This document shows positions 53,797-54,975 of a stretch of 64,000 nucleotides of DNA, one piece after another. Source of the DNA: Clostridia bacterium (GTDB lineage: Bacteria > Bacillota > Clostridia > Christensenellales > UBA1242); assembly GCA_017453125.1 (NCBI GenBank), contig JAFTKS010000012.1, forward strand, positions 187,790-251,789. Direction: 5' to 3'. Positions within the stretch are counted from its first letter, which is position 1; every line of letters begins with the position of its first letter. Below the pieces are notes generated by a model. It searched no databases. It was not told the origin of the DNA and saw only the letters and a list, made by a program, of their open reading frames with translations. The position numbers and the translations under genes are program-made.

Positions 53797-53831
53797 ATTT
53801 TAACATTATTTTAATTAATTTTAAAAATTTG

Positions 53832-53861
53832 TTGACAATCAATATATATATATGGTATAAT
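53832..53861 (+). promoter_or_regulatory. sigma-A promoter of tRNA-fMet
   Basis: TTGACA-18 bp-TATAAT with TG extension. Confidence 0.75.
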
Positions 53862-53891
53862 TTTTTCGTTATCGACGTATATATATTATAT

Positions 53892-53969
53892 CGCGGGGAG
53901 GAGCAGTTCGGTCGCTCGTCGGGCTCATAACCCGAAGGTCGTGTGGTTCAAATCCCACCCCCGCTACCA
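53892..53969 (+). tRNA. tRNA-fMet (CAT), initiator type, with atypical bases
   Basis: CGCGGGG acceptor with unpaired C1; three consecutive G-C pairs in the anticodon stem (TCGGG-CTCATAA-CCCGA); TTCAAAT T-loop; encoded CCA. Confidence 0.9.
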
Positions 53970-54404
53970 CTCAGAAGTTCCTAAACGAACTTCTTTTTTT
54001 TCGCTTTATGGGATTTCAAAAGTCTTTGACTTTTATGACCTTGTCATAGAACCACACTTCGTTCTGTAGTCGGGTCCCCTTGTTCCTCTCAGAACTTTCC
54101 CGACAATTGACGGAACGTTGTTCCTTAATACAAATCCCACCCCCGCTACCACTCAGAAGTTTCTAAATGAACTTCTTTTTTTCGCTTTGTGGGATTTCAA
54201 AAGTCTTTGACTTTTATGACTTTGTCATAGAACCACACTTCGTTCTGTAGTCGGGTCCCCTTGTTCCTCTCAGAACTTTCCCGACAATTGACGGAACGCT
54301 GTTCCTTAATACAAATCCCACCCCCGCTACCACTCAGAAGTTCCTAAACGAACTTCTTTTTTTTCGCTTTATGGGATTTCAAAAGTCTTTGACTTTTATG
54401 ACCT
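53949..54404 (+). repeat. tRNA-fMet-linked tandem repeat, about 2.5 copies of 181-182 bp
   Basis: Units start at 53949, 54131 and 54312 with the last 21 nt of the tRNA (CAAATCCCACCCCCGCTACCA), followed by a terminator hairpin; copies nearly identical. Confidence 0.95.
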
Positions 54405-54436
54405 CTCTGCAATTTTATATTTTTTACAAAAAACCC

Positions 54437-54466
54437 TTGACAAGTGTTTACAATTTATTGTAATAT
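54437..54466 (+). promoter_or_regulatory. sigma-A promoter of elongator tRNA-Met
   Basis: TTGACA then TGTAATAT -10 region 16-18 bp downstream, about 15 bp before the tRNA. Confidence 0.6.
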
Positions 54467-54481
54467 ATTTAAGTAATCTTT

Positions 54482-54558
54482 GGCGGCGTAGCTTAGTTGG
54501 CTATAGCATTCGGTTCATACCCGAAAGGTCGTAGGTTCGAGTCCCACCGCCGCTACCA
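54482..54558 (+). tRNA. tRNA-Met (CAT), elongator type
   Basis: GGCGGCG/CGCCGCT acceptor; anticodon arm TTCGG-TTCATAC-CCGAA as in Bacillota elongator tRNA-Met; encoded CCA. Confidence 0.9.
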
Positions 54559-54975
54559 AAACAGACACGTTTTCGTGTCTTTTTTTCGCTTGGGACTCTT
54601 TTGACATTCTGTCAAACAAGAGATTTCATCTCTTTGAACCTACGACGTCGTATGTAGTCTTTACTTACTTTATATACAACTCCAGCTTTTCTTCTTCATA
54701 TTTTTTACTATCAACAATCTTGTCTTTATCAATGCCGACAATTAACGTCGTTTCACTCCTTAATGCGAGTCCCACCGCCGCTACCAAAACAGACACGTTT
54801 TCGTGTCTTTTTTTTCGCTTGGGACTCTTTTGACATTCTGTCAAACAAGAGATTTCATCTCTTTAAACCTACGACATCGTATGTTGTCTTTACTTACTTT
54901 ATATACAACTCCAGCTTTTTTTCTTCATATTTTTTCTATCAACAATCTTGTCTTTATCAATGCCGACAATTAACG
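54538..54975 (+). repeat. tRNA-Met-linked tandem repeat, about 1.9 copies of 228 bp
   Basis: Units start at 54538 and 54766 with the last 21 nt of the tRNA (CGAGTCCCACCGCCGCTACCA), followed by terminator AGACACG-TTTT-CGTGTCT and a T run. Confidence 0.95.

Follow-up and report, generated by a model that had tools for sequence, protein, structure and literature searches.

A family of short cassettes inserted in the T-loop of transfer RNA (tRNA) genes was found in a stretch of 64,000 nucleotides (nt), called the window below, which spans positions 187790-251789 of contig C7 in the genome of a Clostridia bacterium (1.35 Mb, about 32% G+C, 22 contigs, 99.7% complete). In the window the cassettes stand as tandem repeats behind two genes, tRNA-fMet and tRNA-Met. 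The family inserts between T55 and C56 of tRNA and transfer-messenger RNA (tmRNA) genes; because each cassette brings a replacement for positions 56-76 together with a terminator, the tRNA gene stays intact, and the old tRNA 3' end is pushed downstream, where it decays. The units are read here as miniature, gene-less, non-autonomous integrative cassettes that use the T-loop of tRNA genes and bring an attachment module predicted to fold in single-stranded form, a reading to which a probability of about one half is given.

The anatomy of the cassette can be followed from the two parts of the tRNA that it copies, namely a, which comprises the variable region, the T-stem 5' strand and T54-C56, and b, which runs from position 56/57 to the 3' end. 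The order of parts at a filled locus is tRNA (a-b), terminator, b', hp1, hp2, a', a*, INS, b, terminator. Here b' stands for the reverse complement of b and a' for that of a, a* repeats part of a in direct orientation, hp1 and hp2 are hairpins and INS is the conserved core. INS consists of TGTAGTC, a GTCGGG/CCCGAC stem, AATTGACG, a small hairpin and TTAAT-N, and the direct copy a*-INS-b amounts to the tRNA 3' part with INS in place of the T-loop. The attachment module takes about 110-150 nt, and more if INS contains an insert; the units mostly measure 130-300 nt and lack any gene. Over 34 units from many loci, b' typically pairs with the tRNA from position 57 up to 64-73 and a' from 42-47 up to 55-56, and a few units hold an unsplit inverted copy, such as positions 34-71 at tRNA-Ile of genome G015. 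The junction is precise, since identity to the tRNA starts at C56 in 29 of 39 units. A second core type, represented by the Asn unit of the source genome and the Met unit of genome G018 (84% identical over 111 nt), joins at 60-61.

All features of the window given here lie on the + strand. Behind the initiator tRNA-fMet gene (53892-53969, anticodon CAT; Rfam tRNA 50.2 bits at 53892-53966), Tandem Repeats Finder delimits an array at 53949-54404 with a period of 181, 2.5 copies and 96% matches. Its first unit (53970-54151, 182 nt) carries a trailer and terminator, the inverted tRNA tail, two hairpins, the inverted T-stem 5' half, the core and the tRNA 3' copy. The intrinsic terminator at 53973-54002 (stem 53973-53994, then a T run) is supplied with the unit. 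It is followed by b' (TGGGATTT, 54009-54016), the reverse complement of tRNA positions 57-64, and by hp1 (54018-54034) and hp2 (54035-54047), which sit at position 56/57 of the inverted T-arm. Then comes a' (GAACCACAC, 54049-54057), the reverse complement of the T-stem 5' strand, its extra base included, and of T54-C56. The core at 54065-54130, which scores 73.9 bits with R1, a covariance model of INS built from 7 sequences, shows TGTAGTC, the GTCGGG/CCCGAC stem with a nested hairpin, AATTGACG, a GGAAC-GTT-GTTCC hairpin and TTAAT-A, and b (CAAATCCCACCCCCGCTACCA, 54131-54151) copies positions 56-76 of tRNA-fMet. The second unit (54152-54332, 181 nt) is 97% identical to the first, and the third (54333-54404, 72 nt) is truncated to the terminator, b', hp1 and part of hp2.

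The second array, at 54538-54975 (period 229, 1.9 copies, 97% matches), lies behind a tRNA-Met gene with anticodon CAT (54482-54558; ARAGORN; Rfam 64.1 bits), presumably an elongator from its likeness to the Bacillus elongator tRNA-Met. In its first unit (54559-54786, 228 nt, from direct reading and Tandem Repeats Finder) the terminator (54563-54587) is followed by b' (54591-54598), hp1 (54600-54616), hp2 (54618-54634), a' (GAACCTACGAC, 54636-54646) and a* (GTCGTA, 54647-54652), with the inverted split mapped to tRNA positions 57-64 and 46-56. TGTAGTC (54653-54659), an AT-rich insert (54660-54733), CCGACAATTAACG (54735-54747), TCCTTAAT (54757-54764) and b (54766-54786) complete the unit. The second Met unit (54787-54975, 189 nt) stops right after CCGACAATTAACG and is left without the final tRNA 3' copy.

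The arrays had been noticed in an earlier note made from the letters of the window, and both the repeat search and direct reading bear out its claim of tandem repeats that duplicate the tRNA 3' end behind fMet and Met. The parts it listed recur in the same order in both units: 21 nt of tRNA 3' end ending in ACCA, a terminator with T run, CGCTT, inverted segments of the tRNA T-arm (TGGGATTT vs AAATCCCA, TGGGACTC vs GAGTCCCA), two hairpins, a third palindrome, TGTAGTC, CCGACAATTRACG, TCCTTAAT and the next tRNA 3' end. Two of these parts are now seen differently. What was called an inverted T-arm is half of a full inverted copy, whose other half (GAACCACAC or GAACCTACGAC) follows after the two hairpins, and the third palindrome is a' followed by a*. 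The 13-mer CCGACAATTRACG has 4 matches in the window against 0.05 expected. Folded with DNA parameters and compared with shuffles, the body of the fMet unit gives z = -3.8 on the + strand and -3.2 on the - strand, and that of the Met unit -3.0 and -3.2. Whether the tandem copies are an assembly artefact, a doubt raised in that note, was judged from contig depth only: in the Logan contigs of two runs, of which the best holders may be the source sample, the repeat pieces lie at about 1.6-2.6 times the flank depth, and this roughly twofold depth argues against an artefact. Logan contigs from two further studies cover parts of the units; in all, the units are seen in runs of three studies.

The folded design is kept while its sequence changes. 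In 34 units, 116 stems of at least 6 Watson-Crick pairs were counted, vs a mean of 22 in shuffles, and the raw stems hold 816 Watson-Crick, 13 G-T and 9 A-C pairs, the last two numbers being too small to decide between RNA and DNA. A model of hp1, hp2 and the third hairpin hp3, taken from three fMet modules, was used to align 19 modules (15 distinct) of eight species. Over the three hairpins 94.2% of the cells are paired vs 70.3% after shuffling, and 15 of the 19 pairs have changed on both sides. For hp1 the figures are 100% and 6 of 6, and for hp2 98.9% and 6 of 7; no one-sided change occurs in 259 cells, and the values were not approached by any of 500 shuffles or by any slid version. In the INS stem all 6 of 6 pairs covary; across 55 distinct sequences its pairing reaches 99.1%, with one U-G in 323 cells. 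In the long-range arms, b' and a' mismatch the tRNA at 181 of 979 positions (18%), while the local hairpins are near perfect. MAFFT alone misaligned hp2, and therefore the pair counts rest on model-fitted alignments, which lean towards structure and flatter the counts; the slid controls answer this in part, and plain reading of the sequences agrees. The covariation foreseen in the earlier note is thus present in hp1, hp2 and the INS stem, on counts of this kind. Its argument that conserved structure with partner-specific sequence implies selection holds, in view of the same architecture at 15 isoacceptors and tmRNA, the covarying hairpins and the lack of an Rfam match. Judging from the aligned units, the cassette structure is under selection.

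Further copies were found at other tRNAs and in other genomes, as the earlier note had proposed to check with a covariance model. In the source genome the exact last 16 nt recur downstream for 7 of 36 tRNAs called by ARAGORN (Arg-acg, Lys-ctt, Ile-gat, Met, Ser-tga, Gln-ctg and Asn-gtt), tRNA-fMet adds one, and R1 adds copies behind tmRNA, tRNA-Tyr and a tRNA-like 3' fragment on contig C6. The family occupies 11 tRNA/tmRNA loci there, with 15 core copies, in addition to the tRNA-like fragment. Among 41 genomes of the genus, R1 gives 83 matches in 19 (13 of the 27 of good quality), with up to 10 per genome; the class of carriers defined by R1 misses divergent cores, as genome G026 has fMet modules but no R1 match. 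No R1 match was obtained in 150 other genomes of the order, 5 of them of the same family, under stricter filters and with at most 32 candidates scored per genome. The exact 13-mer CCGACAATTRACG, which is too strict a probe, identified true copies only in G015 and G027 among 60 relatives; four matches outside the genus lie in coding sequence and were rejected. The core motif was found in 11 stretches of genome contigs, 10 in metagenome-assembled genomes of Clostridia, Clostridiales or Christensenellales and one, uninspected, in such a genome of Actinomycetota. In JGI metagenome contigs neither the core motif nor a 23-nt flank word had a match.

A re-search with R1 returned 62 rows, of which 60 were inspected, the two dropped being the same DNA under two loci. 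Behind the core, 50 of the 60 have a copy of the 3' strand of whichever tRNA or tmRNA lies nearest upstream on the same strand, matching it at 12 or more of 14 bases, and in 8 more a tRNA/tmRNA gene lies 95 to about 340 nt upstream and the copy is truncated. Of the other two, one is a mismatched fMet copy and one stands some 25 kb beyond tRNA-Ser(cga), where an island that has two large serine recombinase genes ends. To the question of whether matches always follow tRNAs, the answer is that all 60 lie behind a tRNA or tmRNA gene. Counted by target, they occur at tmRNA and at 15 isoacceptors, hence at least 16 kinds: fMet, Met, Lys-ctt, Arg-acg, Ile-gat, Trp, Leu-caa, Leu-gag, Glu-ctc, Ser-gga, Ser-cga, Ser-tga, Thr-cgt, Tyr and Gln-ctg. 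The Rfam family whose match would have explained the units did not appear: in the region and five sister loci (E up to 1) only tRNA, a Staphylococcus small RNA model overlapping a promoter and weak chance hits were returned, and the units themselves reached at best 24.5 bits with an unrelated model whose gathering score is 39.8, with no match to rtT or any other family.

Two variants were seen along the way. The tRNA-like fragment of the source genome (C6:470-690) has a T-arm, acceptor strand and CCA without a recognisable 5' half. The terminator behind it has the same sequence (AAAAGTCTTTGACTTTT) as hp1 in the fMet unit, and next comes a hairpin-less cassette of the second core subtype. In G026, 3' of tRNA-fMet, a run of short hairpins separated by words like TATGCAAT, TATGTAAT and GATTACATAC lies between terminator and module, and represents a different small repeat.

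Filled and empty sites, which the earlier note had suggested comparing between strains, were compared between species at the fMet locus. The locus was fetched from 30 species through the neighbouring gene; the tRNA was present in 28, two of these ended at a contig edge, and 26 could be assessed. Ten are filled (8 with b' and a', 2 with b' only) and 16 are empty, showing the terminator only and then the next promoter or gene; the site in G013 holds an apparent short remnant. Copy number differs between sister species, with one truncated unit in G024 and one full and one truncated unit in G036. Distal tRNA copies are often truncated or degenerate, as expected of displaced fragments, and the cassette terminator differs from the resident one at Asn, Ser, Tyr and tmRNA.

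Versions with the same ends carry cargo. The small ones hold a GNAT gene (857 nt), a CBS-domain gene (911 nt), a DUF4097 gene (1020 nt) or a gene without an assigned family (730 nt). A 9.2-kb version at tRNA-Ile of G024 has genes for a two-component system, a helix-turn-helix protein and a Bro-N protein, and no recombinase in the 8 open reading frames scanned. At tRNA-Gln(ctg) of the source genome, a 13.8-kb island (C12:2292-16180) lies between the tRNA and a copy of its 3' end. Its genes include a large serine recombinase, a rolling-circle replication protein of the filamentous-phage type (G2P), a Schlafen-type helicase, a Schlafen AlbA_2/HATPase_c_4 protein and a GNAT gene; a truncated cassette lies inside it (C12:15510-15600), and its far end is formed by a full module and a distal b. 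Cores are shared where arms differ: the Arg unit of the source genome and the Trp unit of genome G061 are 94% identical over 49 nt, and the core tail of the Met unit in the window is closer to the fMet unit of G018 than to the adjoining fMet unit. Furthermore, between species in which the identity of the neighbouring protein is down to 51-63%, that of the core is still 92-94%.

From these parts a route of integration can be proposed. In the single strand, b' would pair with b and a' with a*, so that the branched fold would rebuild the T-arm duplex of the tRNA, with INS and the extra hairpins emerging at the crossover. A recombinase acting in trans may then recombine the folded site with the tRNA gene, which would make movement a site-specific recombination with the single-stranded fold as its active form. 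Arrays would grow by repeated insertion or by unequal crossing-over. Between the two options of the earlier note, a mini-element or a structured CCA-ended non-coding RNA, the evidence leans to the mini-element because of the filled and empty fMet sites, the cargo versions, the precise C56 junction, the distal decay and the lack of an internal promoter, with the RNA staying as a rival.

The enzyme that would act on the cassettes was sought across the source genome and the genus. The earlier note was correct that no integrase lies in the window; the two tyrosine and two large serine recombinase genes of the source genome lie elsewhere, and no tyrosine or large serine recombinase, reverse transcriptase, IS110 or IS200-type Y1 transposase adjoins any array. 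Neither tyrosine recombinase of the source genome is next to an array. The only Xer-like one adjoins lexA (C8:64658-65197) and has an in-frame TAA; its orthologues in the genus are uninterrupted frames of about 350 aa. The other, a 464-aa phage-type tyrosine integrase, belongs to an ordinary integrase island (C12:116715-118959), in which it and an AbiU2-type HEPN gene lie behind tRNA-Arg(cct); a second tRNA-Arg(cct) is on contig C14. The source genome has one IS200-type transposase. It also has reverse-transcriptase domains at C5:2388-3140 and C2:1538-2296, in frames of 1243 and 1286 aa, each of which fills most of its small contig (4.8 and 5.8 kb).

Several observations weigh against the integrative reading. 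In the genus comparison the cassettes are not tracked by large serine recombinase, tyrosine recombinase or reverse transcriptase: a large serine recombinase is present in 7 of 19 core carriers vs 9 of 22 non-carriers, and a reverse transcriptase in 6 of 19 vs 4 of 22. The co-occurrence with a tyrosine recombinase or reverse transcriptase that the earlier note had proposed to check is not seen. Genome G027, with 7 copies, has one Xer-like tyrosine recombinase and no large serine recombinase, and the DEDD domain of IS110 (PF01548) has no match in the source genome, complete to 99.7%. No excision joint, circle or excised form was seen in Logan contigs, and no free form was found among viral contigs, where the core motif had 0 matches. 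(Apparent skips between the two tRNAs in Logan contigs proved to be foreign letters from other organisms and were discarded as signs of excision.) The fMet and Met arrays end inside the core and not with a displaced tRNA fragment, so that extra deletions are needed. Units at the same tRNA in different species are mostly mutual best matches, a pattern compatible too with long-standing vertical descent kept by purifying selection, and so with a host function. The reading gives no account of how a cassette comes to match a new tRNA. Lastly, the loops are pyrimidine-rich on the tRNA-sense strand (TTT 13 vs AAA 1, TTC 12 vs GAA 1, TCC 5 vs GGA 0; bases T 155, C 113, A 103, G 40), a bias that could reflect a strand-specific single strand, either RNA or one DNA strand.

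This loop bias is one of the points in favour of the strongest rival, that the units are genes for a structured tRNA-like non-coding RNA, an explanation that is possible but has the odds clearly against it. Transcription reading through from the tRNA promoter would yield such an RNA, with a 3' end set by the unit's own CCA and terminator. It would take a multi-branch or cloverleaf-like fold, in which the b'-b minihelix with its NCCA tail copies the cognate acceptor-side helix, and would act on the tRNA-handling machinery, for instance as a decoy or regulator. The strong compensatory change in every local helix, the steadiness of the core beside the divergent neighbouring protein, the exact CCA end and terminator kept in every unit and the extension of b' into the acceptor strand in several units (tRNA 57-73) all suit an RNA, and in the long-range arms G-T mismatches mildly outnumber A-C ones (41 vs 23, too few to decide). 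However, G-U pairs are almost lacking from the hairpins and the INS stem, the reverse strand folds equally well or better in 27 of 34 units, and the b' and a' arms mismatch the tRNA at 18% of positions while the local hairpins are nearly free of mismatches. Moreover, promoter-like sites are lacking within the units, each body of which comes after a terminator, and none of the sequencing runs listed as containing the region is of RNA. Cassettes recognised by R1 are absent from 22 of the 41 genus genomes, 16 of the 26 fMet sites are empty, and cargo genes can sit within the unit.

An unlikely further version, which overlaps the reading as integrative cassettes, would make the cassette a self-guided, retargetable integration device. 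Here b', a', a* and b would pair with both strands of the T-arm and yield a four-way structure resembling a Holliday junction, and the core would recruit a host enzyme, such as the universal Xer-like recombinase or some as yet unnamed nuclease. Target choice would be set by nucleic-acid pairing and not by protein, which would account for the use of a single core at 15 tRNAs and tmRNA with no dedicated integrase.

Still less probable is spread by homing, in which a nuclease would cut the empty T-loop and repair would copy the cassette, possibly with template switching. Inverted and direct flank duplications around one point (55-57) may be the product of fold-back or template-switch repair, and homing would explain why the arms match each new tRNA. 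The nuclease is the difficulty: the 5 small cargo proteins have no nuclease or recombinase domain, the other island proteins scanned have none of a nuclease besides the HUH-type G2P and the Schlafen AlbA_2 protein of the tRNA-Gln island, and no nuclease gene was seen beside any unit inspected. Least probable of all is that the units are inert debris, scars of prophage or island attachment sites with local tandem duplication and no function. In favour of it, passages of the Islander paper and the tycheposon preprint describe frequent integration at tRNA and tmRNA genes, where displaced 3' fragments and tandem arrays occur; neighbouring units are 96-97% identical as after recent duplication, and classical recombinase islands occupy tRNA-Gln and tRNA-Arg(cct) of the source genome. 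Debris would not keep 94-99% pairing through compensatory changes, nor a 50-nt core more than 90% identical across species and tRNAs, nor one elaborate order of parts at 15 isoacceptors and tmRNA, and the covariation counts largely refute this reading.

The two tRNA genes of the window have promoters of their own. That of tRNA-fMet (53832-53861) reads TTGACA-18-TATAAT with TG and matches the consensus at 12 of 12 positions, and that of tRNA-Met (54437-54466) matches at 10 of 12. The T-stem 5' strand of tRNA-fMet has one extra base (GTGTGG vs CCCAC; T-arm 53940-53964), and ARAGORN misses the gene for this reason. The bulge (GTG-T-GG vs CCCAC) is also present in most genus species fetched, with a compensating change at the adjacent pair (GCG-T-GG vs CCCGC); three species have a regular T-stem, and ARAGORN fails on the bulged fMet genes. 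The Rfam model S774 (Staphylococcus sRNA 774) scores above its gathering threshold at 53813-53911 (53.1 bits); what it matches there is just the AT-rich promoter plus the initial 20 nt of tRNA-fMet, which suggests a peculiarity of the model and not a small RNA.

Genes for tRNAs are classic landing sites of islands and prophages, and in the accepted picture each site has one dedicated integrase. Here one gene-less family with target-tailored arms occupies at least 16 kinds of target, with no linked recombinase found. If the cassettes move, this would call for a recombinase of very broad T-loop specificity or for targeting by the cassette's own folded strand, and either route, if true, would be of interest for genome engineering. 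If they are RNAs instead, they would form a large unrecognised class of tRNA-tail mimics. Either way, the cassettes shape tRNA loci, carry small cargo genes, and break assemblies and tRNA finders in uncultured gut Clostridia.

The cassette is most likely an undescribed miniature mobile element; in the literature searched, no published description was found of gene-less cassettes with a shared core and inverted tRNA segments. It is not of the kind of miniature inverted-repeat transposable elements, repetitive extragenic palindromes or BOX elements, as copies lie only behind tRNA and tmRNA genes and what repeats at the ends is the tRNA end itself, copied directly over 21 nt. The E. coli tyrT 178-bp repeats (rtT RNA), a single locus in enterobacteria that the earlier note had invoked, likewise form tandem units behind a tRNA gene and end in a tRNA 3' copy. 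The comparison holds as an analogy only, since the present units have no rtT-like match in Rfam; they also serve many tRNAs, contain inverted tRNA segments and share a core. Like the bridge (seek) RNAs of IS110/IS1111, the cassettes have a non-coding module that folds, measures about 150-200 nt and is complementary, through separate segments, to either side and either strand of a specific target. They differ in that the source genome has no DEDD transposase and 21 nt of target are duplicated in place of a 2-nt core; an action of the cassette module as RNA is hypothetical.

Closer in outcome are the genomic islands of tRNA genes. Passages of the Islander paper and the tycheposon preprint establish that the tRNA is made whole again by the island, with a displaced fragment left behind, that crossover occurs in the T-loop or T-stem and that tandem arrays form; the T-loop is an integrase subsite named in the Islander paper, and it matches the C56 junction of the cassettes. 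Such islands insert within the gene and restore its 3' end, and the displaced fragment forms a direct repeat; they also use tmRNA, their arrays lengthen on the side of the tRNA, and cargo-only and degenerate members occur. The cassettes behave in the same manner, with an intact proximal tRNA that was split and restored, and with a displaced fragment in direct orientation at the far end of most units. Unlike islands, they are mostly 130-300 nt long and gene-less, carry an inverted tRNA 3' part split by hairpins, use one related core for at least 15 tRNAs, and have no integrase linked to them, only the 13.8-kb tRNA-Gln island carrying a recombinase, of the large serine type.

The attP(+) site of CTX phage and the attC site of integrons are folded single-stranded attachment sites. 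Integration at dif by XerCD, as in integrative mobile elements exploiting Xer (IMEX) of the CTX type, does not describe the cassettes, which lie at tRNA and tmRNA genes and resemble those elements in the inverted-site design only. The target of the cassettes is the tRNA T-arm and not dif or attI, no IntI-type integrase was identified, extra hairpins and a conserved core occupy the centre of the site, and the single-stranded form is here a prediction. What they share with attP(+) and attC is a common plan: two target-like inverted sites pair to rebuild the target duplex, structure is kept while sequence varies, and small cassettes with zero or one gene are set in arrays.

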